The translations under genes were made by a program, and so were the position numbers. The notes beneath the pieces are model-generated. The model had not been told where the DNA came from. It made no database searches and was given only the letters and a program-made list of their open reading frames with translations. This document shows, piece by piece, positions 14,076-62,500 of a stretch of DNA of 64,000 nucleotides; position 1 is the first letter of the stretch; each line of letters starts with the position of its first letter. The DNA is from an uncultured Thermoleophilia bacterium (GTDB lineage Bacteria > Actinomycetota > Thermoleophilia > UBA2241): contig CAVOGK010000026.1 of the NCBI GenBank assembly GCA_963695395.1, positions 60,511-124,510 on the forward strand. The letters run 5' to 3'.

Positions 14076-14098
14076 GGCCGGCGCAAGACGCAAGACAC

Positions 14099-15415: not shown

Positions 15416-15432
15416 CCGCCGCTCCCGGGCCG

Positions 15433-19218: not shown

Positions 19219-20649
19219 TCACGTGAGGACGACGCCGCAGACCTCCGCCAGAGCAGCCACTTGGGCATCGGACAACGCCGGTCTCCAGTCGGCGCGAGCC
19301 TGCAACATGGCTGTCACGCGCTCGCGGGCGGCGTCGACCTCGTCGCGGTCCTCCGCCTTCCAGGCGTCGTACGAAAGACGTGTCGAGACGACCGGCGCGA
19401 ACTGCTCGCCGGCGCGGATGCGCCGCGTGGTCTCCTTCTCGGCCAGGAAATGCCCGCCCGGACCGACCCTCTCGATCATCTCGCCGAGGATCTCCTCGTG
19501 CGAGATGGTCACGTCGGCCAGCAGCCGGCGGATGATGCCCACGATCTCGCAGTCGATGACGATCTGCGGCAGGTACAGCAGGTCGACAGAGTCGAGCATG
19601 CCGACGCCACCGCTGAGCACGTCGGCCCCGGCGGCGGCTGAGGTCAACCCCTTCAGGGCCTTGTCGTACCCAGCCTGGATGCCGGGGTACTTGGCCTCCG
19701 TGCCCAGGCCGGGCACCGCGACAGGCACGCCCAGGAAGTGCCCCATCTCGATGCTGGCGGCGGCCATGAGGTGAGATTCGGGCGCTCCGTACGCCACGTG
19801 TGCGGAGCGCATGTCCATGACGTTGGAGGAGGCGCCGAACACCAGGCGCGCGCCGGGGGCCATTGACTGCATCGCCGTGGCCACGCCGAGGAACTCGGCT
19901 ACCGCCTGCGTGACGCCGGCGGCGACGGTGATCGGCGTCGTCGCCCCGGACATCGGGATCGTGTAGACCTCGATCGGCACACCGTGCACGGCCATGGCGG
20001 CATGGAAGTCCAGCGCACCGCCGTCCACCTGCAGCGGGGAGGCCGCGGTGAGCAGCGTGCTGAACCGCGGTCGCTCCCTGAACGCTTCCTCGCCATCGGC
20101 GACGATGTCCCCGATGCGCAGCAGCGGTTCGACCTGCGACGGGCAATCGACGAAGGTGACGTGCTTGTCCGTGTTCGTGAGCATGGTGAAGTAGCCGGTG
20201 AGCTCGCGGACATCGAGAGGCACGTCGTTGGCGGTCACCGTCGTCCAGACCAGGTCGACCTCCGGCGAGGCGTCGAGCAGCGCCGTGGCCTTACGCAGGT
20301 CGTCGAGCGTCGAGAGCCGGCGTTCGCCGCTCTCGTCGTCCAGCACGAAGGCGCCGCAACCGGAGGAGCAGAAGTGCGAGCCCTCCCCTTCGGCGAGCAG
20401 AACGTCCTGCGCCGGCGTGGCGCCCGCCATGACGATCTCGCGCGGGCAGTGGTCGACGGCCTCCCGGACGAGGTCCGGTGGGAAGCGGACGATGCCGCTC
20501 TCGTGGTCGACCGCCGCGCCTTGCGCGGCGAGCGCGGCGAGTGCCCGGGAGCCGGCGAGACGCATGCCGACGCGCTCGAGCAGGGCCAGGGCCTCCCGGA
20601 CGATGAGGTCCTTCTCTTCCTGGCTCAGCCAGGTGGTCCGCTGTCGCAC
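19219..20649 (-). CDS. MttB-superfamily (trimethylamine methyltransferase family, COG5598) corrinoid-dependent methyltransferase, non-pyrrolysine paralog
   Basis: 476 aa. Family-typical segments PESHLMAAASIEMGHFLGVP, AGYDKALKGLTSAAAGADVLSGGVGMLDS. No internal stop. Confidence 0.8.
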   Translation of the reverse strand: MRQRTTWLSQEEKDLIVREALALLERVGMRLAGSRALAALAAQGAAVDHESGIVRFPPDLVREAVDHCPREIVMAGATPAQDVLLAEGEGSHFCSSGCGAFVLDDESGERRLSTLDDLRKATALLDASPEVDLVWTTVTANDVPLDVRELTGYFTMLTNTDKHVTFVDCPSQVEPLLRIGDIVADGEEAFRERPRFSTLLTAASPLQVDGGALDFHAAMAVHGVPIEVYTIPMSGATTPITVAAGVTQAVAEFLGVATAMQSMAPGARLVFGASSNVMDMRSAHVAYGAPESHLMAAASIEMGHFLGVPVAVPGLGTEAKYPGIQAGYDKALKGLTSAAAGADVLSGGVGMLDSVDLLYLPQIVIDCEIVGIIRRLLADVTISHEEILGEMIERVGPGGHFLAEKETTRRIRAGEQFAPVVSTRLSYDAWKAEDRDEVDAARERVTAMLQARADWRPALSDAQVAALAEVCGVVLT

Positions 20650-20829: not shown

Positions 20830-22653
20830 TCAGACCGTCGGCGTGTCCGACAGCAGCTTCTTGGTGTAGTCGGCCTGCGGGTCGTCGAGGACGGCGTCCA
20901 CGGCGCCGTACTCCACAATACGCCCCTCGTTCATCACCGCGACCTCCTGGGAGATGCTGCGCACCAGGGCCAGGTTGTGGGTGACGAACAGCATCGAGAG
21001 GCCCATGTCGCGCTGCAGGCGCGGCGAGCAGTTCGATGATCGCCGCCTGCACGGAGACGTCGAGCCAGGAGGTCACCTCGTCGCAGATCAGCACCGTCGG
21101 CTCCGCCGCCAGACCGCGAGCGATGGCCACCCGCTGCCGCTCCCCGCCGGAGAGCTGGTCCGGGTAGCGGCTGAGCAGCGACGCGTCCAGGGCCACCTGC
21201 TCGAGCGCCTGCTCCATCCGCCCCTCCATCTCGCTGCGCGAGAGGTCGAAGAAGACCCGGAGCGGCTGCGAGAGGATCTGGCCGATCGTCTTGCGCGGGT
21301 TGAGCGAGCTGTAGGGGCTCTGGAAGATGTACTGGATCGCCTGCCGGGTCGCCCGCGGCCGGCCGCGGGCGTCGCGCGAGAGCGGCTTGCCCATGAACTC
21401 GATGTCGCCGACGATCTTGTGCTGATGCAGTCCGGCGATGCAGCGCGCCAGGGTCGTCTTGCCGGACCCGGACTCACCGACCAGGGAGAGGCAGCGCCGC
21501 TCGCTGAGATGAGTGGTGATGTCGTGCAGCGTCTCCTTGTGCTGGTAGAACGCCTTCACGTCGCGCACGCTGATGACCTGCTTCTCCTGGGTTCCCGGAG
21601 CAGAGAGCGACTTGTCGCGCAGCAAGAAGTCCCGCTCGGCCGCCGCGGCATTCACTTCCTTGTGGCGCCAGCAGCGCACGCGGTGCCCGGGGCTCACCTC
21701 CTCCACGGGGGGATACTCCTCCCCGCAGTGGTCGACCGCCCAATCGCAGCGCGGCGTGAAGGCACAGCCGCTGGGCCGCCTGCCCGGGCGGGGGGCCCAG
21801 CCCGGGATGCCGCGCAGGGCACGCTCGCCGGTGATATCGGGGATGGACGCGAGCAGCTTGCGCGTGTAGGGGTGCCGGCCGGACGCGAAGAGCTCGTCGC
21901 GGGTGCCGATCTCGACGACCCGGCCGGCGTACATCACGGCGATGCGGTCGGCGAGGTTGGAGACCACGGCGAGGTCGTGGGTGATGTAGAGCGCCGCGAC
22001 GCCGTACGACCTCGTGAGGTCGCGCACGGTGTCGAGCACGTGCGCCTGGGTGGTCACGTCGAGGGCGGTGGTCGGCTCGTCGAGGACGATGACCTTGGGC
22101 CGGTTGGCGAAGGCCATGGCGATGGCGACGCGCTGCTGCTGTCCGCCGGAGAGCTGGTGCGGATACCTGCGCAGGAACGCCCTGTCGGACGGCAGCAGGA
22201 CCTCGGCCATCATCTCGGCGCGGCGCGCCTCGCGATCTTCCGTCGACGAGCCGAAGCCGTGCACCTCGAGGATCTCCAGGAGCTGCGTGCCGATGCGCAG
22301 CGCCGGGTTGAGCGCCGCCGAGGAGTCCTGCGGCACGTAGCTGATCTGGCCGCCGCGGACGGCGCGCAGCGCCGCCGGGCCCATGGCAAGGACGTCCTCT
22401 CCGTCGATCTCCACCTGTCCGCCGGCGATCTTCGCGCCGCGGCGCTGGTAGTCGAGCAGGCTGGTCCCGACCGTGGTCTTGCCCGAGGCGGATTCGCCGA
22501 CCAGGCCCAGCACCTCACCGCGGTGGATCACCATCGAGACGTCGTCGTCGATGTCCACGCCCGAGGGATCGAAGACGATGCGCAGCCCCTCGACGCGCAG
22601 GACGACGTCAGGCTCCACGCTGGTCGCGGGACCGGCAGTGGTCGTGGACTCCA
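20830..22653 (-). CDS. Fused double ABC ATPase of an Opp/Dpp-type transporter (OppD-OppF fusion), one frameshift near 21020
   Basis: MESTTTAGP... Two Walker A sites ([18 protein letters not shown]) and two LSGG signatures. The true C-terminus ...[20 protein letters not shown] is in an alternate frame ending near 20830. The 1104-aa ORF is an artefact. Confidence 0.75.
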
Positions 22654-23574
22654 TCACCCCACCCCCGTGTCGCGTTCGATGCCGATCAGCGCGCGTCCCA
22701 GACCGTCGGCGATCAGGTTGGTGCCGATCGTCAGGATGCCGATCAGCAGCACCGGCACGAACACCGGCCACGGCTGGATGACGATGCCGATGCGGTTCTC
22801 GTTGATCATGAGGCCCCAGTCGGCCGCCGGTGGCTGCATGCCGAAGCCGAGGAACGACAGCGCCGCGATGAGGCCGATCGAGTACGTCAGGCGCAGGCCG
22901 AACTCGACCAGCAGCGGGCTGGTGATGCTCGGCATGATCTCGTTGAAGAGGATCTTCCAGCGCGCGATGCCGAACGCCTCGGCCGCGCGCACGAAGTCGC
23001 GCTGCGCGACCTCGAGCGTCGCGGAGCGCGCCACGCGCGCGATGCGCGGCGCGTGCCCGATGCCGACCATGAGCACGATCAGCCAGAGCCGCGGGCCGAG
23101 GATGGAGACGAAGAGCAGCGTGAGGACGATCTGCGGGAAGGCGAGCACGACGTCCAGGATGCGCATGACCGACTCGTCGACCCAGCGCCGCGCGTAGCCG
23201 GTGATGAGGCCCAGGGTGACGCCGAGGGAGAGGCCGATCACGGTGGCCGCGAGGGCGAGCAGGATGACCGTGCGCCCGCCGTAGAGCACGCGCGTGAGCA
23301 CGTCGTGGCCGATGTAGTCGCTGCCCAGCCACATCTTCGGGATGGCCGGTGGGGAGAAGGGCGGCGCCACGAACTCGGTCGGTGAGTACGGAGCGATCCA
23401 GGGGCCGACGACCGCGAGCAGCACGATGAAGCCGAAGATGCCGACGCCGATCTTGGTGCGCCCCATGCCCCAGGCCTCGCGAAGGGTCATCAGCCACTCG
23501 GAGTGGCGACGCTCGGGCAGGATGACGGCCGGCTCGGCCAGCTCGTCGGCGCTGATCATGATCTCGTCGCTCAT
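22654..23574 (-). CDS. oppC: Oligopeptide/dipeptide ABC transporter permease
   Basis: 306 aa with multiple TM segments. ATG/TGA abutment with the ATPase gene. Confidence 0.85.
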   Translation of the reverse strand: MSDEIMISADELAEPAVILPERRHSEWLMTLREAWGMGRTKIGVGIFGFIVLLAVVGPWIAPYSPTEFVAPPFSPPAIPKMWLGSDYIGHDVLTRVLYGGRTVILLALAATVIGLSLGVTLGLITGYARRWVDESVMRILDVVLAFPQIVLTLLFVSILGPRLWLIVLMVGIGHAPRIARVARSATLEVAQRDFVRAAEAFGIARWKILFNEIMPSITSPLLVEFGLRLTYSIGLIAALSFLGFGMQPPAADWGLMINENRIGIVIQPWPVFVPVLLIGILTIGTNLIADGLGRALIGIERDTGVG

Positions 23575-24536
23575 CGCAGGCCTGTCCGTAGTCGCGGGCT
23601 GACAAGGATGGTGAGGATGTCGGCCGTCAGGTTGGCCAACACGTACACGGCCGCGATGATCAGGCAGATGGCCTGCACCATGGGCATGTCGCGGTTGGCG
23701 ACGGCGTCGACCAGGGCCGAGCCGATGCCGGGAAAGGCGAAGAGGTACTCGACCACGACGACGCCCCCGGCCAGCCAGGCGAGGTTGAGCGCCGTGACCT
23801 GGAGCGCCGGGCCGAGGGCGTTCGGGAGCGCGTGCCGGTTGAGCACGAGGCGCTCGGGCAGCCCCTTGAGCCGCGCCATCATCACGTACTCGCTCTCGAG
23901 CACCTCGATGGTGCTGGCACGCAGGATGCGCGTGATGTACGGCGCCACCGCCAGCGTCAACGTGAGCGCGGGCAGGATGAACAGCTCGATTTGCTGATAG
24001 ATGGGAACGCCCGGGTCGACGCGCGAGACCGCAGGCAGCCAGTTGAAGACCTGGGTCGCGAACAGCAGGATCAGGACGATGCCGATGACGAACTCCGGCA
24101 GGGCGGCAAGCGAGAGGCTGCCGACAGTCACGGTGGTGTCGAACTTGCTGTCTCTTCGTAACGCGGTGAGGGAGCCCAGAAGCAGGGAGATGGGAATGCT
24201 GAGCAGGGCGGCAATCGCGACCAGTATGAAGGTGTTGATGACGCGCCGCGTGAGGAGCTCGGTGACCGGCTTGTCCTGCACGAGCGAGTTCCCGAGGTCG
24301 CCGGTGACGACGCCGCCGAGCCAGCTCAGGTACTGCTCGGCGATCGGCTTGTTCAGTCCGAGTTGCTCCCGCAGGGCCTCGTAGCGGGCCTTTTCCGCCG
24401 CTTCCTTGCCGAGGATCGCCCGGGCCGTGTCGCCGGGCAGGGCCTGGGTCGCGGCGAACACGACGACCGAGACCAGGAACAACGTGAGGACACCCAAGCC
24501 GATCCGGATCAGGATCAGCTTCAGGAGCGGTGGCAT
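23571..24536 (-). CDS. oppB: Oligopeptide/dipeptide ABC transporter permease
   Basis: 321 aa. MPPLLKLILIRIGLGVLTLFLV..., typical OppB/DppB. Confidence 0.85.
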   Translation of the reverse strand: MPPLLKLILIRIGLGVLTLFLVSVVVFAATQALPGDTARAILGKEAAEKARYEALREQLGLNKPIAEQYLSWLGGVVTGDLGNSLVQDKPVTELLTRRVINTFILVAIAALLSIPISLLLGSLTALRRDSKFDTTVTVGSLSLAALPEFVIGIVLILLFATQVFNWLPAVSRVDPGVPIYQQIELFILPALTLTLAVAPYITRILRASTIEVLESEYVMMARLKGLPERLVLNRHALPNALGPALQVTALNLAWLAGGVVVVEYLFAFPGIGSALVDAVANRDMPMVQAICLIIAAVYVLANLTADILTILVSPRLRTGLR

Positions 24537-24750: not shown

Positions 24751-26397
24751 TCAGACGAAGTAGACTTCCTTGAAGTACATCCGGCCGACAGGACCGCCGA
24801 GCTTGTCCAGCTTGTAGCCGGTGGTCGTCGTGGAGTAGGCGTCGACCTGGTTGCGCCACGACCAGACGATGTAGCCGCCCGTGTCGAACTCGATCTGCTG
24901 CGCTTGGCTGATGAGCGCGTTGCGCTGCGTCGTCGTCGACCGTCGTGAACGCCTCCTGGACGCAGCGACAGCCACTCGGCGTTCTCCCAGTGAGTCTCGT
25001 TGTAGGGCGCGTCGGGCATCGTGCCCTGGCTGGCCTGCGCGAGGTAGCCTCGCGTCGCCCAGAAGTCCTGGGCGAACGGCCACGACAGGTAGTCGTCGCC
25101 GTAGAAGACGCCCGCGTCGGTCTTCTTGATCTTGACGGTGACGCCGGCGGCCTTGGCCTGCTCGGCGAACACCTGCGCCGCCGCGACCTCGTCGCCGCCC
25201 AACGCGCCCTCGGAAGTGACGAGCTCGACCGTGAGGTTGTTGTCGTAGCCGGCCTGCTTGAGCAGCGACTTGGCCTGCTCGATGTCCTGCACGCGCTGCG
25301 GCGAGGTCGCGGCGTGCCGGCGTCGTACCGGGCGTACATGTCGTTGCCCACGGCGCCCGAGGCCGCTGTACGCCTGGTCGATCATCTGCTGGCGGTCGAC
25401 GATGAGCCGGAAGGCCTGACGCACGCGCACGTCGTCGAACGGCTTGACGTCGATGCGCATGGTGAAGGGACGCCACGCGCCGGTCTCGGCGTTGAGGAGC
25501 GCGAGGCCGTCCGTCGCCTCGATGACCTTGGCCTGGCTCTTCGGCAACTGCGACATCGCCTGGATCTGGCCGCTCTGCAGCGCGTTGATGCGCGCCGTGT
25601 CGTCGGCGAACTCGATCATGGTGAGGGTGTCGACGTACGGGGGCGTGTTCCAGTAGTCGGCGAACGCATCCCACTTGAACTGCTCGCCGGGCTTCATGTC
25701 GATCATCTTGAACGGGCCGCTGCCGATGGGGTTCTTCGGGTCGAAGCCCACCGGAACGATCTTGGCAGCTACGCTCAGCGAGATTCTCGGCCAGCAGCAC
25801 GTTCGCCGTCGAGAGGGTGATCTCGACCGTCTTGTCGTCGATCTTCTTGGTGCCGCCGGGAGCGACGCCGGTGAGAGCGGCGGCGCCGACCTTCGGGTCC
25901 TTCGGGTCGACGATGCGATCCAAGGAGAAGACGACGTCGTCGGCGGTGACGGGCTTACCGTCGTGCCACAGCACCCCGTCGCGCAGCTTGACCTGCCAGA
26001 CGGAACCGTCGGCGTTGGGCTCGATGGTCTCGGCCAGCAGGTTCTCCAACTGCATGTCGAAGGTCCAGCTGGTGAGACCCTCGTACATGATGTACTGGAT
26101 GGCGATGTCGGGCTCGTACGAGCCCAAGTGCGGATCGGCGGTGTCTTTGGCCGAGCCGCCGACGATGCCGACCATGAGGTCGCCGCCCTTGTTGGGCGTG
26201 CCCGCGGCGGACTCCGAGGCGGAGCTGCTCGTACTGTCGCTGCCGCACGCTGCCGCCAGCGGCCCGAGAGCCGTGACTCCTCCGAGCGCTGCCGCCCCCT
26301 TGAGCAGACTGCGGCGCGAGATGCGCTTGCCGTTGACGAGCTCCCCGAGCTCGCCCAACTCGAGCCCTGCTGGACTCCGCTTGTCCTTGTCAGTCAC
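24751..26397 (-). CDS. oppA: ABC transporter substrate-binding protein, family 5 (OppA/DppA/NikA-like)
   Basis: Tat/Sec-like RRSLLKGAAALGGVTALGPLAAACGS lipobox-like signal. SBP_bac_5 pattern. Start uncertain: GTG 26397 preferred, the ORF extends to 26607. Confidence 0.75.
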   Translation of the reverse strand: MTDKDKRSPAGLELGELGELVNGKRISRRSLLKGAAALGGVTALGPLAAACGSDSTSSSASESAAGTPNKGGDLMVGIVGGSAKDTADPHLGSYEPDIAIQYIMYEGLTSWTFDMQLENLLAETIEPNADGSVWQVKLRDGVLWHDGKPVTADDVVFSLDRIVDPKDPKVGAAALTGVAPGGTKKIDDKTVEITLSTANVLLAENLAERSCQDRSGGLRPEEPHRQRPVQDDRHEARRAVQVGCVRRLLEHAPVRRHPHHDRVRRRHGAHQRAAERPDPGDVAVAEEPGQGHRGDGRPRAPQRRDRRVASLHHAHRRQAVRRRARASGLPAHRRPPADDRPGVQRPRAPWATTCTPGTTPARRDLAAARAGHRAGQVAAQAGRLRQQPHGRARHFRGRVGRRRGRGGAGVRRAGQGRRRHRQDQEDRRGRLLRRRLPVVAVRPGLLGDARLPRAGQPGHDARRALQRDSLGERRVAVAASRRRSRRSTTTQRNALISQAQQIEFDTGGYIVWSWRNQVDAYSTTTTGYKLDKLGGPVGRMYFKEVYFV

Positions 26398-29860: not shown

Positions 29861-31079
29861 TCACGCCCGCGAGCTAGCATTGCCGTGGCCGGCGTACGCC
29901 TTCTGGAGGACCTCCGCCACCTCCGGCCGTGTGAACCACTCGGGGAGCTTCTTGCCTTTGGCGAGGTAGTCCTCACGCACCTGGGTGCCGGAGATGGAGG
30001 AGATGTCGGCCCCGGGAGGGACCAGGCTGGCCTCTTCATACCGGTCCTCATCGGACAGATAGAACAGCTCGCGCGGAGGCGACGGTCTGCACACCGATCT
30101 CGGCCGAGTAGTGCTCGGCCATCGCTTGCGCGTCGTAGGGTCCGTAGAAGGGCACGCCGTGCGAATCGGGGCCGGGGCCGGCATGGTCCCGCCCGACAAT
30201 GAGATGCGTGGCGCCGTAGTTGCGCCGGATGATGGCGTGCCACACGGCCTCTCGCGGCCCGGCGAAGCGCATGGCCAGGGGCATGAGCGAGAGCAGCGTG
30301 GTCGCCTGGTCGTAGTAGTTGCGCACCAGCACCTCGTAGGCCTCGACGCGGAGTGCGTGATGCACGTCCTGGGGGCGGGTCACGCCGACCGCCGGATGGA
30401 TGAGGAGCGTACCGCCCACAGCGCTCGCGGCACGCTTGGTCAGCTCCTCGTGGATACGGTGCATCGGGTTGCGGGTCTGGAACGCGACGACCGTCGGGTT
30501 GCCCATGGCCGCGAGGCGCTCCCGCGTCTCGGCCGGCGTGAGGCACTGTGAGCCGTGAAGACGATGCCGCGGCAGACCGAGCACGCGCGGGCGGCCGGCG
30601 AGGTAGTAGCCCGGCCAGCGCGCCGCCTCGATCACCAGCGGGTGGGCGCTGTCCCTCCCGCCCAGCACGGCCCGCATCTCGCGCATCATGTCGTGAGGGT
30701 AGGCCTCGTCCACCTCAAGGACCGCGAGGACCGCGCCCTGCTCATCCGTCAGCGCCACCTCGCCGGGAGCGCCGCGCACGTCCTCCTCGCGGACGGGCAC
30801 CGCCAGCGGGATGGGGAACAGCATGCCACCCCTGAGATGCATCTCGTAGAGCACCGACTCGTACTCGTCCTGCGCCATGAACCGGTCCAGCGGGGAGAAC
30901 GCCCCGACGGCCAGCATCTCGAGGTCGTACTGGGCGCGCAGCGAGAGCGGCACGACGGGGAGCCGTCGTGCCCGCTCGAGCAGCGACCGCCGTTCTTCGG
31001 GGTCGCTCACGACGAGGTCCACAAGCCGCCCGCCGAACGGCGAGATCAGCTCGCGGGCTGGCTCAGGTCGGTGGCTCAC
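29861..31079 (-). CDS. sat: Sulfate adenylyltransferase (ATP sulfurylase), one frameshift near 30130-30200
   Basis: QTRNPMHRIHEEL, HLIVGRDHAGPG. The C-terminus ...GTQVREDYLAKGKKLPEWFTRPEVAEVL continues in ORF 29861-30199. Confidence 0.75.
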
Positions 31080-31186
31080 GGAAGTCGTCGTGCACGCTCC
31101 TGATCGGACGGCCGCGTCGGCCGACGCGGCCGCGACGCCGGGGAGGGCGGACGGCACGCGCGCCCTCCCCGGCGAGGTAGGCGCGC

Positions 31187-31915
31187 CTACGGACGCAGGC
31201 GCGCCTCGTACATCTTCTCGTAGTACGGCATGCACTGCTCGTACATCTCCTTGAGCTCCGGCACGTCGTCGACCGTGTAGCCGAAGTCCTCCATGTCTTT
31301 CTGGAATCCGGTGCTGTCGCCGGCGTCCAGGTGCCACATCTCCCAGTCCTTCCACTCCTGCTTGAACTCGGGCTTCCACGTGAGCGACTCGGGCAGGAAC
31401 GGGATGCCGACCTTCTCGCAGTACTGCTCGACCACAGACCCGGCGTCGATGAGCAGGTCCTCGGCGTCGACGACCGCCGGCACCTCACCGGTGATCTTCT
31501 TGGCCAGCTCGAACAGCTTGAACTGCGACTCGAAGCCGATCTCGCGGAGCGTCACCGTGGGGTCGAGCTTGTGATACGAGACCAGCGTGAGGGCGGGGTC
31601 GCGGATGATGAACGTGTTGGTGAACTTCTGCATGAAGTCCTCGTCCGCGTCGTCGCTGACGTAGTACGCCATGTCCTTGAAGAACACCGGCTTGTCCGCG
31701 CCGGCGGCCTCGATCATCTCGACGGTGCCCTCGAAGGTCTGGGGATGGCCCTCCTGCGGCTGCATCCCGACCGGCTCCTTCGCCTTGGCCTCGAGGTAGA
31801 AGTAGTACCCGAACGGCTCGTGGATGACCTTGAAGTCGCCGCGCTCGAACATCATGCGTTCGAATCCGGTCGAGATCGAGCGGGGGACGGACCAGAGGGG
31901 GACGATCTTGTTCAT
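31187..31915 (-). CDS. Sulfotransferase-family protein
   Basis: MNKIVPLWSVPRSISTGFERMM, a P-loop-like PAPS-binding motif. GGAGAG SD before the ATG at 31915. Confidence 0.55.
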   Translation of the reverse strand: MNKIVPLWSVPRSISTGFERMMFERGDFKVIHEPFGYYFYLEAKAKEPVGMQPQEGHPQTFEGTVEMIEAAGADKPVFFKDMAYYVSDDADEDFMQKFTNTFIIRDPALTLVSYHKLDPTVTLREIGFESQFKLFELAKKITGEVPAVVDAEDLLIDAGSVVEQYCEKVGIPFLPESLTWKPEFKQEWKDWEMWHLDAGDSTGFQKDMEDFGYTVDDVPELKEMYEQCMPYYEKMYEARLRP

Positions 31916-32411
31916 GCAATCTCTCCTCGACGCGTGCTGCAGGGCTGATGTGACGATCGGGACCGGCCAGCCGTGGCGACGGGCGACGCACCCGGGACGG
32001 CGACCATGCCTCCGACATGTCTGCAACGACGGTAACACTCGGGCGACGTCGTGGCAACACCAGGATGACGGAATCATAGCGAATCCTGCTGATTCTCAAC
32101 TGGTCGTGAATGCAAAGGGTCCGATTCTCTGTACTTACTGACTGTGGTCAGCATTATCGATATGAATCCCTGAAATCCCACCCGTTGTGCGTCAGGGCCA
32201 GCTCCCCAACGGGACACTGCCGCTCGGCGGCCTCGACCGCCACACGCGGCCTGCGTCGCCGGCGGTATGGAACGCGCCGCGCACGGAGGATCTCTTCTAC
32301 AATCGGCAGGGTGAGGGCGTAAGGGTGGCGCGGCCCGGCGAGGACGAGACCTCGCAGGAGCCGCGGCGGACCGGCAAAGCGAGACAGGCTACCTCGTCCG
32401 GGAGGACGCCG

Positions 32412-33413
32412 ATGTTCACAGTGATCCAGACCGACCGCGGCGCCTCGGATCGGGAGGTCGAAGACGGCGTCTTTCGCGGCTGCGGCCTCGACATCGACTT
32501 CAGGCGCTTCGAGCTCGAGAGCGAGAGTGATCTGATCGCCACCTGTGCGCAGGCCCACGCCCTCCTCCCGGCGTTCGCCCCGGTCACCGCGCGTGTCCTT
32601 GGCGAGCTTCCCGACTGCCGCATCGTCGCCTTCATGGCCACGGGCTACAACAGCGTCGACCTGGCGGCGGCCACAGAGCTCGGCATCGTCGTCACCAACG
32701 TGCCCGACTACTGCACCGCGGAAGTCGCCGACCACGCCCTCGGGTTCCTGCTCGATCTGGGGCGGAACATCACCCGGCTGCGCGACAGCGTCCTGGCAGG
32801 GCGGTGGGACTACGAAGCGTGCGGCAAGCCCGACCGCATCGGCGACCAGACGCTCGGCATCATCGGCCTGGGGCGCATCGGCAGCGCGGTCGCGCGACGG
32901 GCCCGCGGCTTCGGCCTCGCGGTGCTGGCCTCCGACCCCTACGTCGACGAGGCCGCGATGACGGGGCTCGGCGTGCAGAAGGCGGATCTCGATGAGGTCC
33001 TCGCCTGCGACTACGTCTCCCTCCACTGCGCCCTGACCGACGAGACGCAGTCGATCATCGACGCGGCGGCGCTCGCGCGGATGAGGCCGACGGCCTTCCT
33101 CATCAACACCGCCCGCGGGGGCTGCGTGGACACCGAGGCGCTCACCGTGGCGCTCGACGAGCGGCGCATCGCCGGTTCCGCGCTCGACGTGGTGAGCCCC
33201 GAGCCGCTTCCCGACGGCCATCCGCTGTACACCATGCCCAACGTCATCATCACCCCGCACACGGCCTTCATGTCGCGGGTCTCGGAGCGTGAGGCGCGCG
33301 AGAAGGCCTGCCTGGAGGTGGTGCGTGCGCTTCGCGGCGAAGTCCCCCGCAACGTGCGCAATCCCCAGGTGCTGGACCGGGACGGCCTCCGTCTCACCGC
33401 CTCCGCGGCATGA
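32412..33413 (+). CDS. D-isomer-specific 2-hydroxyacid dehydrogenase (PGDH/CtBP-like)
   Basis: GIIGLGRIGSAVARRARGFGL NAD-binding motif. Catalytic R/E/H pattern. Confidence 0.8.
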   Translation: MFTVIQTDRGASDREVEDGVFRGCGLDIDFRRFELESESDLIATCAQAHALLPAFAPVTARVLGELPDCRIVAFMATGYNSVDLAAATELGIVVTNVPDYCTAEVADHALGFLLDLGRNITRLRDSVLAGRWDYEACGKPDRIGDQTLGIIGLGRIGSAVARRARGFGLAVLASDPYVDEAAMTGLGVQKADLDEVLACDYVSLHCALTDETQSIIDAAALARMRPTAFLINTARGGCVDTEALTVALDERRIAGSALDVVSPEPLPDGHPLYTMPNVIITPHTAFMSRVSEREAREKACLEVVRALRGEVPRNVRNPQVLDRDGLRLTASAA

Positions 33414-33485
33414 GACCTTGACCACCCGGCGCCACACGCGATCTCTCCAGCTGCCTGGATCACCCCCAGGGACGGCGGTCAGCGG

Positions 33486-35414
33486 TCAGGTCGGCGAACG
33501 CCCCCCTGTCTCCGCCGCCAGACGTCGGGCGACGGCTACCGCGTCGCCGGCGCTCGAGCCGTGGCCGTCCGCGCCGATGTCACGGGCGAAGCGCGCGGTG
33601 ACGGGAGCCCCGCCGACCATGACGCGTACGCCGTCGCGCTCACCCGACGCGACCAGCGCGTCGATCACGAGCCCCATCTGCGGCATGGTCGTGGTCAGCA
33701 GGGCGCTGAGGCCGAGAAGCGACGCGCGATGCTCTCGAAGCGCGCGCACGAACTCCTCGACCGGCACGTCCGTCCCGAGGTCGACCACGTCGAACCCCAC
33801 GCCACGCAGCATGATGGCCACGAGGTTCTTGCCGATGTCGTGAAGGTCGCCCCTCACAGTCCCAAGGACGACGGTGTCCGCCGCCCGCGAGACGCGTCCC
33901 TCGTTCATGAGCGCCTCGCCGAGCGCGTCGACCCCCGCCTGCATCGCGCGCGCCGCCAGCAGCATCTCCGGTATGAACGCCTCGCCCGCGGCGAAGCGCG
34001 CGCCGACGACGTCCATCGCGTGGATGAGGCCGTCGTCGAGGATCGCCTGCGCCGGCTGGCCGGCCGAGAGCAGCCGCCGACACCCGTCGTCGACGCTTGC
34101 CTCATCCCCGGCGAGGACGGCGGCGGCCAGCGAGGTGAACCCCTCGGCGACGGGAGCCGCCGGCTGCATCGGCGCGCGCCCACCCTCGACGAGGATGTCG
34201 GGCACCGCGCCCATCGCCAGCGGCAGTCTGCCGTCTGTCTGGAAGAACTCGTGCACGCGGCGCAGGCGGTCGAAGTCGGCCGTCGGCGGGACGGCATCGG
34301 TGATGCCGGCGATGAAGCGACGGCCCGGAGCTACGGCAGCTTTCACGTAGCGCAGGTAGTCGTCCAGGTCGGCGTCCGACGTCTGCTCGGGAATGAGATA
34401 GTCGGCCGGGATGCCGCCGATGATGCACAGATCGCCGGCCCAGCGCTCGTAGTACTCACGGAGGGTCAGGGCGGTCATCGGATACGGACAGACGGATTCC
34501 GCGGCATCGACGCCCGACGTCCTGATGAGCTCCATGAGGCCCCGGTTCTCGCCGTCGCAGTGCGTCAGGAGAGGGATGCCGCGAGGCCGCAGCACATCCG
34601 CGGCACGACGCAGCCAGGGGAGGATCTGCTCCTCGAAGAACGGCGGATACGTGATCGTCTCGTCGAAGTTGCCGCCCCAGGTCACGCCGTCGACGTCGGC
34701 GGACTCGTAGAACTCGAGAAACTGCTCGTAGAGCGGAGCGATCGCGGCGGCGAACTCCTCCAGTTCCGCCCGCCGGTCGTTGTAGAGCAGGTAGAAGTCG
34801 GTGCCGGGGAAGAAATGCTTCTGGATGTGGTGCATCGGCGAGGCCGGCTCCCCGGCCGCCGAGATCACGGCGCCGTCCTCGCCGATGCTCTGCCTGACCC
34901 GGCGATAGGTGTCCGGGTCCGGCACGAGACGCAGCGACCGGAACAGGTCGGCGACGACCCGCCAATCGTCGAACTCCTTGATGAAGGGCTGCGTGACCCA
35001 GGGGTAGGTGATCCCATTGCGGAGCATCTCGGGCGTGTGACTCAGGACGGCGCCCGCGTCGCCGGAGTCCGTCTCCGCCCGCACGTGGAGGCGATCGCCG
35101 TCGCGGCGCCACGAGAAGCCTACGTCGTCACCGAGGGTCAGCCGATAGCCACACTCCGGGGGCGTGTAGAGACCGAGAGCACTGAGGGCCATGCCCTCGT
35201 CCGACGACGCGAGGTAGGCGAAGGTGCTCGTCAGCAGGTAGACGCCCCACCCCTCGGCGCGACAGATCTCCTCGATCGAGGCATCCTCGAGTCCGGGCGG
35301 CAGGGTCCCCGCGGCCGCACGGCCGGTGTGCCAGAGGTCCAGCCGCGGTGCGTACGGGAGCCTGTCGGGCAGCTCACCTCGGAGGGCCGCCAGCGCCTGT
35401 GTCCTGAACCCCAT
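33486..35414 (-). CDS. Two-domain methyltransferase: N-terminal URO-D/MtaA-like domain fused to a C-terminal cobalamin-binding domain (CmuA-like architecture)
   Basis: URO-D-like N-terminal ~400 aa. C-terminal DLHDIGKNLVAIMLRGVGFDVVDLG...GLSAL B12-binding DxHxxG/SxL/GG signature. GGAAGGGAGGG SD before the ATG at 35414. Confidence 0.75.
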   Translation of the reverse strand: MGFRTQALAALRGELPDRLPYAPRLDLWHTGRAAAGTLPPGLEDASIEEICRAEGWGVYLLTSTFAYLASSDEGMALSALGLYTPPECGYRLTLGDDVGFSWRRDGDRLHVRAETDSGDAGAVLSHTPEMLRNGITYPWVTQPFIKEFDDWRVVADLFRSLRLVPDPDTYRRVRQSIGEDGAVISAAGEPASPMHHIQKHFFPGTDFYLLYNDRRAELEEFAAAIAPLYEQFLEFYESADVDGVTWGGNFDETITYPPFFEEQILPWLRRAADVLRPRGIPLLTHCDGENRGLMELIRTSGVDAAESVCPYPMTALTLREYYERWAGDLCIIGGIPADYLIPEQTSDADLDDYLRYVKAAVAPGRRFIAGITDAVPPTADFDRLRRVHEFFQTDGRLPLAMGAVPDILVEGGRAPMQPAAPVAEGFTSLAAAVLAGDEASVDDGCRRLLSAGQPAQAILDDGLIHAMDVVGARFAAGEAFIPEMLLAARAMQAGVDALGEALMNEGRVSRAADTVVLGTVRGDLHDIGKNLVAIMLRGVGFDVVDLGTDVPVEEFVRALREHRASLLGLSALLTTTMPQMGLVIDALVASGERDGVRVMVGGAPVTARFARDIGADGHGSSAGDAVAVARRLAAETGGRSPT

Positions 35415-35530
35415 GGACGACCCTCCCTTCCAGTTCGTCGCGCCAGCCAGCACACCTGATCGATCGCGGTCGCGATGCTACGGGGCCGCAGCAGCCCGGC
35501 GATGCCCCCAGTGTCGCGCCGCGGCGACCC

Positions 35531-35761
35531 TCAGACAGGGTAGGCCTCGTACTCCAGACCGGCTCTGACCATGGCCAAGTAGTTCTCCGCCGCGACGCCC
35601 GTGTGGATCGAGGCCGTGTTCACCGCCTCCCGGCCGAGGATCGCCCGGGCCGTGTCTCCGGGCAGCGCCTGCGTCGCCGCGAAGACGACGACCGAGACCA
35701 GCAGCAGGGTGAGGATCCCCAGGCCGATGCGGACGAGGATCAACTCCAGGAGCGGCGGCAA
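35531..35761 (-). pseudogene. In-frame chimeric remnant: 5' ~50 codons of an oppB paralog (TTG start, SD retained) joined to the last ~26 codons of a URO-D-like methyltransferase gene
   Basis: (M)PPLLELILVRIGLGILTLLLVSVVVFAATQALPGDTARAILG matches oppB1 (~85% nt identity). The tail SIHTGVAAENYLAMVRAGLEYEAYPV matches the C-terminus of the URO-D gene at 58099-59175. Confidence 0.55.
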
Positions 35762-35888
35762 GGTACGCGCTCACCTCCATGCAAGGACTGTCGCGGGAAC
35801 GATGCCGAGCCCGAAGCGACCGGCGCGGCGGCGGGCGCCAGGGGGAGTACGGGCGCCCGCCGCCAGGTACTTTGCGCCGGCAGGGACG

Positions 35889-37502
35889 TCACACGAAGGA
35901 GACGTCCTTGAAGCCGAAGTTGCCAAGCGGGACGCCGAGCTTCGAGGTCTTGAGACCCGAGACCCTATCGGACCCGGCATCGACCTGATTGCGGAACGCC
36001 CAGATGATGTAGCCGCCCTCGTTGAACTCGATCTCCTGCGCCTGACCGATGAGCTCGTTGCGCGCCGCATCGTCAACCGTGCCGAAGGCCTCCTTCACGA
36101 TGGCAAGCCACTTGTCGTTCTTCCAGTGCGTCTCGTTGTAGGGAGCCCCGGGCATGGTGGCCTGGCCGGCCTGACTGAGGTAGTTGCGTGTGTACCAGAA
36201 GTCCTGCGCAAAGGGCCAGCTCAGGTACTCGTCCCCGTAGAAGACGCCCGAGTCGGTCTTCTTGACCTTCACGGTGACGCCGGCCGCCTTGGCCTGTTCG
36301 GCGAAGACCTGCGCCGCCGCGACTTCGTCGGCTCCAAGAGCACCGGCGGACGTGACCAGTTCAACCGTGAGGTTGTTGTCGTAGCCCGCCGCCTTGAGCA
36401 GTGACTTGGCCTGCTCGATGTCCTGCATACGCTGGGGCAGGTCGGGAGTGCCCGGGTCGAACGGCGCGTACATGTCGTTACCCACGGCGCCGAAGCCACT
36501 GTAGGCCTGGTCGATCATCTGCTGGCGGTCGACGATCATGCGGAACGCCTGCCGGACGCGAACGTCGCTGTACGGCTTGACGTCGATGCGCATGGTGAAC
36601 GGACGCCATGCGCCCGTCTCGGCGTTGAGCAACAGGAGGCCGGCGGTCGCCTCGATCACCTTCGACTGGCTCGTCGGCAGGTTCGATATGGCCTCCACCT
36701 CGCCGCTCTGCAGAGCATTGACGCGCGCTGTGTCGTCGGCGAACTCGATGATCGTGAGCTCATCCACCCATGGGCTCCCGTCCCAGTACTCCGCGAACGG
36801 GGCGAAGGTGAACCGCTCACCAGGCTTGAACCCTGTGAGCTTGAACGGGCCGCAGCCGATGGGGTTCTTCGGATCGAAGTCGACCGGCACGAGCTGACTG
36901 CCACGGAATGCGAGCCCCTCCGTGAGCAGCACGTTCGGCGGGTCCATGCGGAACTCGACCGTGAGGTCATCGATCTTGACGGTGCCGCCAGGATTAAGGC
37001 CGGCGAGCGACGACACGGCCGTCTTCGGATCCTCGGGATCGACGATGCGCTCGAACGTGTACACGACGTCGTCGGCGGTGACGGGCTTGCCGTCGTGCCA
37101 GGTGAGGCCCGACTTCAGGCGGCACGTCCAGACGGAGCCGTCGTCGTTGGGTGTGATCTCCTCGGCCAGATGGTTGACCGCAATGGCGTCCGTGTCGAAC
37201 GCCGTGAGGCCGTCGTACATCTGGTATTGGATGGCGATGTCCGGTTCATAGGACGCCCGGTGCGGGTCGGCTGTGTCCTTCGCGGAGCCGCCCACGATGC
37301 CCACCCGGAGAGAACCGCCCTTGCTCGCGCCGGCTGTGGGAGACGCCGAGGCGTCGCCGTCAGTCTCGCTGCCGCCGCAGGCAGACACGATCGGCCCAAG
37401 AGCCGCCATGCCGCCGAGAACCGCCGCCCCCTTGAAGAGACTCCGGCGCGACACGCGCTTGTTGGAGACCTCCCAGATGAAACCCATCTCGTCGCTACTC
37501 AT
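35889..37502 (-). CDS. ABC transporter substrate-binding protein, family 5 (paralog of oppA1)
   Basis: MSSDEMGFIWEVSNKRVSRRSLFKGAAVLGGMAALGPIVSACGG signal. Homologous to oppA1 throughout. Confidence 0.8.
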   Translation of the reverse strand: MSSDEMGFIWEVSNKRVSRRSLFKGAAVLGGMAALGPIVSACGGSETDGDASASPTAGASKGGSLRVGIVGGSAKDTADPHRASYEPDIAIQYQMYDGLTAFDTDAIAVNHLAEEITPNDDGSVWTCRLKSGLTWHDGKPVTADDVVYTFERIVDPEDPKTAVSSLAGLNPGGTVKIDDLTVEFRMDPPNVLLTEGLAFRGSQLVPVDFDPKNPIGCGPFKLTGFKPGERFTFAPFAEYWDGSPWVDELTIIEFADDTARVNALQSGEVEAISNLPTSQSKVIEATAGLLLLNAETGAWRPFTMRIDVKPYSDVRVRQAFRMIVDRQQMIDQAYSGFGAVGNDMYAPFDPGTPDLPQRMQDIEQAKSLLKAAGYDNNLTVELVTSAGALGADEVAAAQVFAEQAKAAGVTVKVKKTDSGVFYGDEYLSWPFAQDFWYTRNYLSQAGQATMPGAPYNETHWKNDKWLAIVKEAFGTVDDAARNELIGQAQEIEFNEGGYIIWAFRNQVDAGSDRVSGLKTSKLGVPLGNFGFKDVSFV

Positions 37503-37928
37503 GGAACTCCCCCTTCTTGCCTGCCTGTATCGACCAACCCGACTTCGGCGGCGCTCGCCGCGGTCCGTCCCCAGAGCAGCCCCCTGGCTGCAGTTGAGGA
37601 AATCGGTAGACGTACGTCCCCCGTAGACCTCGGCGACAAACCGCTGCGCCACGTTGTCAACGACCATCCCTTATGGATTCTTCATATGTACCGCAGCATC
37701 TCCTGCAAGTCAACAGTGAATCCGAAGAGTATCTGGACATGATGCTTCTTTCTCGGCGTATCGCTCACCACCTCGCACGGCGGCAGGAGACTGTGCGGCT
37801 GCTCCTGGGTACTCCGAACTCCTCACACGCCCAGAACGCGCTCCGCACGACGGGTCGACCCCTCGCCCCTCCCCTCTCGCCGCTCATCGGCGCGATATGA
37901 TGCACTGAACCGCTCAGAGGGAGACCCC

Positions 37929-38399
37929 GTGGACGTTCTCGACCGCCGCATCCTGATCGAACTGCAACGGGACGGCAGCCTCACCAATGCCCGCCTCGCC
38001 GAGATCGTCGGCCTCAGCCAGTCGGCGATGAGCGAGCGCGTGCGCCGACTCGAGGGCGAGGGCCACATCACCGGCTACCGGGCGCTGGTCAGCCCGGCCA
38101 GCCTGGGCATCGGCCTGCAGGCGTTCGTAGCCGCCGAGCTGGTGCATCACGAGACCGCCTGCATCGAGGGCTTCGAGCGCGGCGTCGCCGCCCTGCCCGA
38201 CGTGCGCGCCTGCTACCACGTGGCCGGACGCTTCGACTACCTGCTGCACATCGCCGTGCAGGACCTCGAACACCTCGGCCGCCTGATCAAGGACGACATC
38301 GCCGCCATCCCCGGCGTCGACAAGGTGGAGACCATGCTCGTGTACTCCGAGGTCAAGGCGGACACGGGCTGGCCGACGCTTGAAGGCGACGGAGGCTGA
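37929..38399 (+). CDS. Lrp/AsnC-family transcriptional regulator (paralog of the 56468-56971 gene)
   Basis: GTG start. (M)DVLDRRILIELQRDGSLTNARLAEIVGLSQSAMSERVRRLE. ~88% nt identity to lrp3. Confidence 0.85.
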   Translation: MDVLDRRILIELQRDGSLTNARLAEIVGLSQSAMSERVRRLEGEGHITGYRALVSPASLGIGLQAFVAAELVHHETACIEGFERGVAALPDVRACYHVAGRFDYLLHIAVQDLEHLGRLIKDDIAAIPGVDKVETMLVYSEVKADTGWPTLEGDGG

Positions 38400-38521: not shown

Positions 38522-39964
38522 TCATTGCTGCACGCCGCAGACCTCCGCGAGGGCGGCGAGCTGGTCAGATCCGAGCGCCGAGGCGCGGCCGTCGGCGGCG
38601 TCCGCCGCCCCAGTGGCGAGCACCTGATCCACGATCTCCCTGGCCACGTCCGTCTCGAGCACCCCCGCAGCCATCCACTGTTCGAAGGCCAGGCGACTGC
38701 CGATGACGGGGCTGAAGTGCTCGCCCGCCCGGGTACGCTCGCGCGTCACGCGCTCCTTGAGGTAGTTGCCGCCCGCGCCCAGGCGCGCGATGGCGTCGCT
38801 CATGACGCTCTCCACGCTGATATCGGCGCCCGCGACGATGTGCCGCACGAGCCGCGCGATGTCCGCGTCGATCGGCACCATCGGGAGGTGCCACACGCTC
38901 GACGAGGCCAGCGCCCCGAATCCCCCGCTGATGACATCCACCCCGGCGAGCGCCGCCGGCAGCACCTTGAGGCCCTTCTCGTACCCGGCCTGCACGCCGG
39001 GGTGCTTGGCGTCCGTCGAGAGGGCCGTGTTGTGGACGGGCAGACCGAGATGGTGTCCGATCTCGACCGAGGCGATGCCCATGATGGTGTTCTCCGGGCT
39101 GCCGAGGGACATCGACGAGGTGCGCATGTCGAGGACGCCGGGCCCGCAGCAGGCGAGCACCGCGGCCCCGGGGGCCGTGGCCTGGACGGCGGTGACCATG
39201 CCGAGGATCTCCGCCCACATCAACGCGAGCGTCCCCCCCACCGTGACCGGTGACGTGGCGCCGGCCATCGGCATGGTGTACGCCCAGACCGGCGCCCCCA
39301 TCGCTGCGTGCGCACAGGTCGCGTCGAGGAGCTCGCCGTTGACCTGCAGGGGAGCGCGGACGGCGCACAGGATAGCGATCCGCGGACGCCGCCTGAAGCC
39401 GTCCATGCCGTCCCCGAGGACGTCCATGATGCGCCGTACCGGCGCGACCTCGGTCGGGCAGTCGACGATCACGAATGGCTTCGAGGTCAGCGAGAGGTAT
39501 GCGTAGTACTCGGTCAGCTCGCGGCGTTCATCGGGCACGTCGTTCGCGGTCGCGAACGTCCACAGGAAGTCGATCTCGGGTGTCGCATCCATGACCGCGG
39601 TGCCCTCACGGATGTCCTGCAGCGTCGACTGCCGCACCTTGCCCGTGCGGAAATCCAACGTCTTGGCGTGGCAACCGGACGGATTGAAGAACGGTCCGGT
39701 GTGGCGGTCAAGGACCACGTCGCGTTCCGGCGTGGCTCCGGCCAACACGAGCCGGTCGGGCAACTGGGCGAGAGAGGCGCGCACGAGGTCCGGCGGCATG
39801 CGCACCATGCCGGACTCCCGGTCCACCGTCGCGCCGCGCTCCTCGAGAGCGTCGAGCGCGCGCGATCCCTTCATGCGCATGCCCTCCCGCTCGAGCACGC
39901 TGAGAGCGGACTCGACGACGAGGTCGCGCTCGGACGGGTCCAGGCACGTGAGACGAAGGTTCAT
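38522..39964 (-). CDS. MttB-superfamily corrinoid-dependent methyltransferase, non-pyrrolysine paralog 2
   Basis: Homologous to the 19219-20649 gene (LSLGSPENTIMGIASVEIGHHLGLPV, AGYEKGLKVLPAALAGVDVISGG). ATG at 39964 with AAAGGGG SD. Confidence 0.8.
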   Translation of the reverse strand: MNLRLTCLDPSERDLVVESALSVLEREGMRMKGSRALDALEERGATVDRESGMVRMPPDLVRASLAQLPDRLVLAGATPERDVVLDRHTGPFFNPSGCHAKTLDFRTGKVRQSTLQDIREGTAVMDATPEIDFLWTFATANDVPDERRELTEYYAYLSLTSKPFVIVDCPTEVAPVRRIMDVLGDGMDGFRRRPRIAILCAVRAPLQVNGELLDATCAHAAMGAPVWAYTMPMAGATSPVTVGGTLALMWAEILGMVTAVQATAPGAAVLACCGPGVLDMRTSSMSLGSPENTIMGIASVEIGHHLGLPVHNTALSTDAKHPGVQAGYEKGLKVLPAALAGVDVISGGFGALASSSVWHLPMVPIDADIARLVRHIVAGADISVESVMSDAIARLGAGGNYLKERVTRERTRAGEHFSPVIGSRLAFEQWMAAGVLETDVAREIVDQVLATGAADAADGRASALGSDQLAALAEVCGVQQ

Positions 39965-40084
39965 GCAACCCCTTTTCAGGACGCGCCGGCGGCGAGGGCC
40001 GTCGGCAGCGGTGTCCGTAGGTGACCTGCTCGTAGTCAAGCGCGAATGGTACACCCCTGACCGGCCTCGCGGATGCTGCGCGCT

Positions 40085-56467: not shown

Positions 56468-56971
56468 CTAGTGATGAGCTGGTACTGCGATCTGTGCGGG
56501 GGCCGGCTCCGTCTCCTCCGGCACCGGCCATCCCGTGTCTGGCTTCACCTCCGAGTAGACGAGCATGGTCTCCACCTTGTCGACGCCGGGGATGGCGGCG
56601 ATGTCGTCCTTGATCAGGCAGCCGAGGTGCTCGAGATCGCGCACCGCGACGCGCAGCAGGTAGTCGAAGCGCCCGGCGACGTGGTAGCAGGCGCAGACGT
56701 CGGGCAGGGCGACGACGCCGCGCTCGAAGCCCTCGATGCAGGCGGTCTCGTGATGCACGAGCTCGGCGGCGAGGAAGGCCTGCAGGCCGAGGCCGAGGCT
56801 GGTAGGGCTGACGAGGGCGCGGTAGCCGGTGATGTGGCCGTCGAACTCGAGGCGTCGCACGCGCTCGCTCATCGCCGACTGGCTGAGCCCGACGAGCTCG
56901 GCGAGGTGGGCGTTGGTGAGGCTGCCGTCCTTCTGAAGCTCGATCAGGATGCGGCGGTCGAGAGCGTCCAT
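56468..56971 (-). CDS. Lrp/AsnC-family transcriptional regulator, 9 nt upstream of panB
   Basis: MDALDRRILIELQKDGSLTNAHLAELVGLSQSAMSERVRRLE. Near-duplicate of the 37929-38399 gene. Confidence 0.85.
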   Translation of the reverse strand: MDALDRRILIELQKDGSLTNAHLAELVGLSQSAMSERVRRLEFDGHITGYRALVSPTSLGLGLQAFLAAELVHHETACIEGFERGVVALPDVCACYHVAGRFDYLLRVAVRDLEHLGCLIKDDIAAIPGVDKVETMLVYSEVKPDTGWPVPEETEPAPAQIAVPAHH

Positions 56972-62468: not shown

Positions 62469-62500
62469 GCGTCTCTGGCGACCAGGACTGGAGGTCACTG

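Follow-up and report, generated by a model that had tools for sequence, protein, structure and literature searches.

We examined a short chimeric ORF at 35531-35761 on the minus strand of a 64,000-nucleotide stretch of DNA, which is hereafter called the window and means the whole stretch that was analysed. The ORF has 76 codons, begins with TTG at 35759-35761 and ends with TGA. An SD sequence, GGAGGTGA, lies 9 nt upstream at 35771-35778, and GC3 in this frame is 0.94. Public pipelines label the 76-aa product 'ABC-type permease component'. When 35400-35950 was compared by blastn with the whole window, two matches were found that abut at position 35612. The segment 35612-35760 matched the 5' end of oppB1 at 24387-24535 (83.2% over 149 nt, E 3e-40), and 35531-35612 matched the 3' end of a gene of the URO-D family at 58099-58180 (78.0% over 82 nt, E 1e-13). 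All the remaining matches had E values above 1e-3, except for one to a paralogous oppA 3' end. A separate repeat search of the window returned the same two duplicate pairs, one between the ORF, or stub, and oppB1 and the other between the stub and the methyltransferase gene near 58 kb. A sequence-only reading of this DNA had described a TTG-started ORF with a retained SD, made of the first ~50 codons of an oppB paralog and the last ~26 codons of the URO-D-like methyltransferase encoded at 58099-59175, and had proposed the pairwise comparison that was run here. The coordinates and the SD bear out the ORF, and both parental matches were recovered; the oppB part does cover codons 1-50, but the ~85% nucleotide identity given for it has to be lowered to the value above.

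The stub was compared with relatives that are represented by contigs or loci rather than by whole genomes, and contig ends limit the comparison of their gene order. L002 is an Actinomycetes MAG locus (CAVXRL010000002.1), L045 a Thermoleophilia MAG (GCA_035686425.1), L051 contig_9089 of ERZ25039603 and L052 contig_45768 of ERZ25039483, while L053 and L044 are JGI contigs. A sister population was represented by L044 and by short-read Logan contigs; the data sets SRR360968xx and JGI 3300046044 are from soils.

The oppB-derived part of the stub (35612-35761, minus strand) comprises codons 1-50, covering TM1 and the start of a periplasmic loop, and is 83% identical at the nucleotide level to oppB1 at 24387-24536. 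It matches L052 oppB at 130 of 150 nt, and residues 44-50 of the latter, REAVNTA, are identical. The methyltransferase-derived part (35531-35611, minus strand) comprises the last 26 codons and the stop codon, which correspond to residues 333-358 in the 58-kb paralog. This tail is 86-88% identical to the methyltransferase 3' ends of L002 and L053 versus 76-78% to the paralog in the window, and the homology of L053 to it begins exactly at 35612. With L052 oppB, which reads ...GREAVNTA|RYDAL, and the L053 methyltransferase gene as parental proxies, the joint at 35611-35612 is AACACGGCC|TCGATCCAC, precisely at a codon boundary and with a microhomology of 1 nt (C) common to the oppB and methyltransferase parents. 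The translation across it, ...ARAILGREAVNTA|SIHTGV..., is in frame as had been noted earlier. By this structure the joint is an illegitimate join and no product of homologous recombination.

Residues 4-34 of the stub are strongly hydrophobic and correspond to TM1 of OppB. In Pfam searches, PF19300 gave a sub-threshold match to residues 5-47 (18.8 bits against a cut-off of 23.8). No match to PF00528 was found in the stub, in which the oppB sequence stops after codon 50, and none to PF01208, as only the last 26 residues of the methyltransferase remain; the intact 58-kb paralog spans positions 1-345 of the PF01208 profile. Residues 1-50 are a typical N-terminus of the OppB/DppB permeases (PF19300 and PF00528), including TM1, and are 84-100% identical to orthologs. 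Unlike these permeases, however, the stub is without the remaining 271 residues. Since the PF00528 core and the EAA loop are among what is missing, the stub cannot be a permease.

The gene upstream of the stub is oppA2 (35889-37502, minus strand), which encodes an intact SBP_bac_5 solute-binding protein (PF00496) with 87% amino acid identity to L045 oppA. It has no adjacent permease gene. The sequence-only reading had called oppA2 orphaned, and it is indeed now physically apart from any permease gene. An Lrp/AsnC regulator gene (37929-38399, plus strand) is divergent from oppA2, and the same layout occurs in L045 and L052. The spacer between oppA2 and the stub (35762-35888, minus strand) contains the SD, and its ortholog in L045 is the spacer between oppA and oppB (about 84%); the homology to L045 is contiguous from oppA through the intergenic spacer into the oppB part of the stub. 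The window and the sister population differ in this spacer at 1 of 127 nt. The spacer also contains a perfect 13-bp GC hairpin at 35827-35864 on the minus strand, GGCGGCGGGCGCC ... GGCGCCCGCCGCC, with arms at 35852-35864 and 35827-35839 and without a U tract. This hairpin may be an intercistronic stabiliser or attenuator that descends from the spacer between oppA and oppB. No promoter or terminator was predicted in scans of 35300-38000, and Rfam searches found no riboswitch near the locus.

Downstream of the stub stop codon, a 116-nt spacer (35415-35530, minus strand) leads to the start of the CmuA-like gene. This spacer aligns with the one between the methyltransferase and CmuA-like genes of L053, and the sequence after the stop codon, GGGTCGCC, is common to L002; it was inherited with the methyltransferase tail. 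The CmuA-like gene (33486-35414, minus strand) encodes an intact fusion protein with URO-D-like, B12-binding_2 and B12-binding domains (Pfam). It is 88% identical to its L002 counterpart in amino acids and 90% in nucleotides, with 94% identity at codon positions 1 and 2 versus 83% at position 3; by comparison with L002, the window gene, still intact, seems to be under constraint. 'opp' and 'CmuA-like' serve here as labels of families only, and the substrates are predicted at most.

Both parental genes have intact copies elsewhere in the window. oppB1 (23571-24536, minus strand) is intact and its first 150 nt are a diverged duplicate of the stub; it is orthologous to the L045 oppB gene situated after oppA2. 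It is followed by oppC1 and a fused oppDF1 (20833-23574, minus strand), which are orthologs of L045 oppC and oppDF and contain one +1 frameshift near 21021. A paralogous solute-binding protein gene, oppA1 (24754-26337, minus strand), shows about 65-74% amino acid identity to oppA2, carries five frame-shifting insertions and forms the right end of the block interposed between oppA2 and oppB1. Its region is collinear with L051 and L052. The URO-D-family methyltransferase gene (58099-59175, minus strand) is intact, and its last 82 nt are a diverged duplicate of the stub tail. The genes upstream of it are collinear with those upstream of the L002 methyltransferase gene.

We explored the possibility that the joint is an assembly artefact, with two strains or loci merged in a metagenome contig, which the sequence-only reading had proposed to check. 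An error-prone consensus is suggested by several +1 frameshifts that interrupt conserved genes in the window, and the related MAG locus L002 also has a split gene. However, the identical joint is present in the JGI contig L044, which is 98.4% identical overall to the window, and in 21 Logan short-read contigs of the sister population from several runs. Four of these 21 contigs were read, and all four carry the identical allele. Moreover, the joint lacks any homology by which an assembler might have been misled. Coding indels relative to the short-read contigs number zero across 30463-36591, which makes the reading frame of the stub secure. The joint is real, and the artefact reading, whose probability we consider negligible, is refuted for the joint itself. 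Exact and degenerate-codon scans for the joint pattern in a collection of metagenome contigs found none, and this collection evidently holds no carrier contigs.

The product of the window ORF is database protein P0180, encoded on a 132.6-kb contig. The sister allele corresponds to P0125/P0179, and P0179 and P0180 are in one cluster. Among 5.8 billion proteins, the only full-length homolog was P0125, the sister allele. There were 54 hits in all, and all the others match the OppB part only and stop where the OppB part stops.

Could the stub nevertheless be a functional small membrane protein, composed of OppB TM1 and a 26-residue tail, which is co-transcribed with oppA2 and kept by selection? 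Its native SD and TTG start are intact, and L045 oppB also starts with TTG. The ORF is open and in frame in both populations, and the strong hydrophobic segment is present. The comparison of the window with the sister population nonetheless argues against this idea. The stub differs by 8 substitutions in 231 nt, distributed 3:3:2 over the codon positions. Among them are L20Q, which lies within the TM segment, and K6E, at a position where 6 relatives show no variation. Its pN is 0.031 and its pS 0.047. The pN of the flanking genes oppA2, dehydrogenase and sulfotransferase is 0.005, such that the stub value is about sixfold higher (Fisher p=0.005) and indistinguishable from the pooled pS of these flanks, 0.028. 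Since pN of the stub is at the neutral rate, the remnant is drifting neutrally, and no purifying selection on it was found between the two populations. The sequence-only reading had asked whether the ORF is an independent conserved gene in related genomes. Full-length homologs in several lineages were not found among the 5.8 billion proteins, and the small ORF is confined to one shallow lineage. The in-frame state adds little in its favour, because one in three random joints would be in frame, and we attribute that state to chance. The drift pattern has largely refuted a selected small protein, which we regard as very improbable, and the idea that the peptide, which the sequence-only reading thought could still be made, is of any importance is disfavoured. 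The ORF is a functionless remnant, a neutral fusion pseudogene at a recombination joint.

To place the two parents, we compared gene order in the relatives. Downstream of the oppA2 ortholog in L045, L047 and L050 lie oppB, which again starts with TTG, then oppC, a fused oppDF and a gene of the MttB family; the full order in L045 is Lrp-oppA2-oppB-oppC-oppDF-MttB-aminotransferase. In L002 and L053, an intact URO-D-type methyltransferase gene lies directly upstream of the CmuA-like gene. L045 is collinear with 38070-35625 of the window (Lrp, oppA2, spacer and stub) and then directly with 24535-18317 (oppB1-C1-DF1-MttB-aminotransferase). L002 is collinear with 64000-58099, including the 58-kb methyltransferase gene, and then with 35612-26773. 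L051 is collinear with 31915-14773, straight through oppA1-oppB1, and L052 with 45241-37928, followed by SBPs-oppBCDF. In the window, oppA2 and oppB1C1DF1 are separated by a block of 11.2 kb that contains the methyltransferase tail and the genes for the CmuA-like protein, a 2-hydroxyacid dehydrogenase, a sulfotransferase, an ATP sulfurylase, SulP, Lrp and oppA1. This block is an arrangement that is also established in relatives (L002 and L051). Since the transporter is linked to MttB-family genes in every relative, its substrate is hinted to be a methylated amine rather than peptides. The number and linkage of solute-binding protein genes vary among these loci: L046:10001-13282 has an oppA2-type gene without permease genes and with an MttB-family gene directly after it, and L052:8155-11614 has two tandem genes ahead of one oppBCDF.

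The orthology of the permease genes was examined by sequence divergence and by trees. Between L045 and the window, the proteins of oppB, oppC, oppDF, MttB and the aminotransferase gene are 90, 92, 89, 80 and 91% identical, respectively, with dS values of 0.60, 0.29, 0.35, 0.54 and 0.30; dS for oppA2 is 0.51. The trees of oppA2 and of oppB1C1DF1 are identical, ((window,L045),L050),L047, and the relatives' oppBCDF do not cluster by left-flank type or form two paralog clades. The collinearity with L045, the orthology and the matching trees together suggest that the ancestral partners of oppA2 are most probably still present 11 kb away. By these comparisons, oppA2 and oppB1C1DF1 most probably represent the two parts of an operon that is undivided in the nearest relatives.

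The oppB part of the stub, oppB1 and the L045 ortholog are equidistant from one another (124, 124 and 123 of 150 nt), so whether the stub or oppB1 is closer to L045 is uninformative. The synonymous divergence between the stub and oppB1 is 0.47, which is as large as between species. Against L052, the oppB part of the stub is 94% identical at codon positions 1 and 2 and 74% at position 3, the same as for the intact oppB1, and its omega versus homologs is 0.13-0.27. This profile and these omega values indicate that the parent was functional until recently and that the oppB part of the stub is not an old duplicate. An ancient tandem duplication of [MT tail ... Lrp-oppA-oppB 5'] was considered as well and rejected, because the stub has this profile of a recently functional gene.

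We propose a one-sided recombination to account for this arrangement. In the relatives, two conserved flanks, [A-block ... methyltransferase] and [oppB-oppC-oppDF-MttB-aminotransferase], are joined through one or the other of two alternative middle blocks. Block L is ...MttB-Lrp-oppA2, and block M is CmuA-like-dehydrogenase-sulfotransferase-ATP sulfurylase-SulP-Lrp-oppA1. The relatives show either A-MT-[M]-oppBCDF or [L]-oppBCDF, and the window has both blocks in series, A-MT | L-oppB' | MT'-M-oppA1 | oppB1-C1-DF1, with the stub as the joint between L and M. DNA with the other block would have undergone a homologous crossover at one of its ends, located in oppB and downstream of it or else in the methyltransferase gene and upstream of it, and its other end would have been joined illegitimately at the stub. 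The join at the stub, with its 1-nt microhomology, fused oppB codon 50 to codon 333 of the URO-D-type methyltransferase gene. Such a process would leave two diverged duplicates, one covering 150 nt of oppB and the other 82 nt of the methyltransferase gene. Both duplicates are observed as the one-sided model exactly predicts, and they (oppB 1-150 and the last 82 nt of the methyltransferase gene) flank both candidate inserts. A single event of homology-facilitated illegitimate recombination, with either block as the incomer, is the most economical origin, one that we would accept and doubt in about equal measure. It would require no deletion from a second permease set, and the locus probably gained a block rather than lost one.

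We looked for the homologous crossover by sliding-window identity. Compared with five relatives, oppB-oppDF showed how OppB is generally conserved, together with a patchy mosaic, and no clear switch; the 58-kb methyltransferase gene, compared with L002, gave no clear switch of nearest relative. Third-position identity to the relatives is heterogeneous across the region, ranging from 62 to 85%, and no foreign block stands out in the region by third-position divergence to relatives. The adjacency A-MT|L was seen in no relative, the contigs being too short, and a second complete opp operon, in tandem or at another place, may exist in the relatives' genomes beyond the contigs compared. These points weigh against the one-sided model. 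Versus L002, it is 81-85% for the CmuA-like gene, the dehydrogenase gene, the sulfotransferase gene and the stub tail, 65-70% for the 58-kb methyltransferase gene and its neighbour, and 62-71% for the other genes of the CmuA-like block.

The sequence-only reading had instead regarded the stub as the scar of a deletion. In that case an ancestor with the order oppA2-oppB2-oppC2-oppDF2-(...)-MT-CmuA-like-...-oppA1-oppB1-C1-DF1 would have lost the segment from oppB2 codon 51 to methyltransferase codon 332 in one deletion; in a two-step variant, the second set would perhaps have been acquired by an earlier transfer and then deleted. A single deletion would leave just one abnormal joint, as is found here, and the purifying selection on the oppB part of the stub until recently implies that a full-length parent existed somewhere. 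Deletions do occur at this locus, as shown by a further microhomology deletion of 1.52 kb in the sister population, and the synonymous divergence of the stub from oppB1 is compatible with long-standing paralogs. However, the tandem arrangement that a deletion requires is present in no relative examined: the order oppA2-oppBCDF...MT-CmuA-like was not seen in L045, L046, L047, L050, L051, L052 or L002, within the limits set by contig ends. In L047, we looked for the A-block and the methyltransferase gene after an opp operon and did not find them; the genes downstream of its operon are other MttB paralogs. The genes after oppA2 in L045, including MttB and the aminotransferase gene, are orthologous to the opp1 set and not to a lost one, and the oppBCDF sequences do not fall into a pair of paralog clades that follow flank type. 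A deletion would also call for the methyltransferase gene, and probably its upstream block, to have been present twice. Because of these extra copies, a deletion takes at least two events versus one for the one-sided recombination. We consider a deletion unlikely, and the claim that oppB2, oppC2 and oppDF2 were deleted is not supported and probably wrong, since the partners of oppA2 are most probably the opp1 genes, still present, and tandem sets were seen in no relative within the contigs compared. The comparison with syntenic regions that had been proposed earlier thus gave a divided result, in which both parents are intact in relatives but the undeleted tandem order is not seen.

Homology-facilitated illegitimate recombination was defined and described for Acinetobacter, S. 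pneumoniae, P. stutzeri and E. coli conjugation (PMC3240628). The effector-immunity arrays of the Vibrio cholerae T6SS and the displacement of Rhs C-termini have been proposed as a natural example (PMC5361080). The process is rare where it has been measured (PMC5361080), which counts against the one-step model. As in the described cases, one end would be homologous to the resident locus, and the other is joined with practically no homology, here 1 nt. The displaced resident gene would likewise be an orphan or stub beside the newcomer, and the locus is a mosaic with conserved flanks and alternative middles. Unlike those cases, the process here is read from comparative structure alone, and the block is large (11 or 22 kb).

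The stub also resembles fusion pseudogenes and deletion scars in joining the 5' part of one gene to the 3' part of another in frame, in retaining the RBS of the upstream gene, and in showing neutral drift within a shallow lineage only. Unlike them, it has intact, diverged copies of both segments in the same 64 kb, and these are orthologous to the partners in relatives. This difference favours an insertion or juxtaposition rather than a net loss. Like orphan solute-binding protein genes that serve a permease encoded at another locus, oppA2, which is intact and keeps its divergent Lrp gene, has no adjacent permease gene; the oppA2-type gene of L046 lies apart from permease genes too. oppA2 differs from such genes in that its orphan state is secondary and stems from a split operon; docking of its product on OppB1C1DF1 is only putative.

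If the one-sided recombination is placed in the context of the wider region, the stub might be a natural trace that an abortive exchange of cassettes left in uncultured Thermoleophilia-like actinobacteria of soil. In this exchange a second module, with a CmuA-like corrinoid methyltransferase gene, would have been captured through a homologous crossover at one side and an illegitimate one at the other and would not have replaced the first. We put this forward tentatively, with slightly less than even confidence. The flanks of the exchange would be the Pyl-type methylamine genes with the methyltransferase gene on one side and oppBCDF-MttB-aminotransferase on the other. The captured CmuA-like module would lack its partner methyltransferase and would already be eroding in the sister population, through a 1.5-kb deletion that affects the catalytic domain of the CmuA-like protein.

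The age of the joint can be bracketed by the populations and relatives. The joint predates the split of the window from the sister population, at a neutral divergence of about 3%. The stub has 12 lineage-specific changes in 228 nt, so the joint is recent relative to the split from L045 and L052. In the sister population, the 1.52-kb deletion extends from 35514 to 33994 of the window at a 9-nt microhomology, TCGCCGCGG (L044:1904-2040; L054-L057), and is present in the JGI contig and in the 21 Logan contigs. The CmuA-like protein thereby loses its URO-D-like domain and the greater part of its B12 cap, and what remains is a B12-binding ORF of 159 aa. This deletion suggests that the methyltransferase module beside the scar is dispensable in that population.

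These findings bear on annotation, where the 76-aa ORF should be marked as a pseudogene remnant. Likewise, annotation should treat oppA2 as one half of an operon that has been split, with the permease and ATPase genes still present at a distance of 11 kb. The locus provides a dated, population-supported case of methylated-amine gene-cluster reshuffling in uncultured soil actinobacteria, with capture followed by stepwise decay. It also illustrates that what looks like a 'deletion scar' in one genome can, on comparison with relatives, prove to be the joint of an insertion. The feature is of a known kind and reveals no new kind of biological system.

Other genes in the window carry lesions of their own. 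Compared with oppA2, oppA1 has +1 insertions at about 25763, 25358, 24969 and 24930 and a +2 insertion at about 25311, which break its frame. With these insertions removed, it is 91% identical to intact database proteins, and the lesions reflect either a very recent pseudogene or consensus error. A genuine oppA1 pseudogene as the complement of the orphan oppA2 is a candidate reading, tempered by +1 frameshifts of the same sort in other conserved genes of the window. There are also the +1 frameshift near 21021 in oppDF1, an SDR gene at 62459-63311 that is split into two ORFs, and frame switches at 14000-16700. Such frameshifts in conserved genes suggest an indel-prone assembly, and the CmuA-like gene of L002 is split too. 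For the frameshifts in the window, errors in the consensus of a long-read MAG and lesions of very recent date are both possible sources.

An MttB-family gene at 63343-64000 on the minus strand contains an in-frame TAG at 63829-63831 in the canonical position (…WVAGA*GDSKV…), and Rfam reports a PYLIS_3 match at 63732-63831 (64.5 bits, E 7e-11). By these features, it looks like a pyrrolysine-type trimethylamine methyltransferase gene in a high-GC Thermoleophilia-like genome. In L051 and L002, the Dimeth_Pyl dimethylamine methyltransferase genes are split into 353+106 aa, as an amber codon predicts. No tRNA or pyl biosynthesis genes were found within the window. The three MttB-family paralogs within the 64 kb (19219-20649, 38522-40054 and 63343-64000, all on the minus strand) are 30-50% identical to one another. 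Two Lrp paralogs, at 37929-38399 and 56468-56971, are each about 85-88% identical to the Lrp of relatives. Third-position divergence is heterogeneous to every relative, and the region forms a mosaic island of methyltransferase genes.
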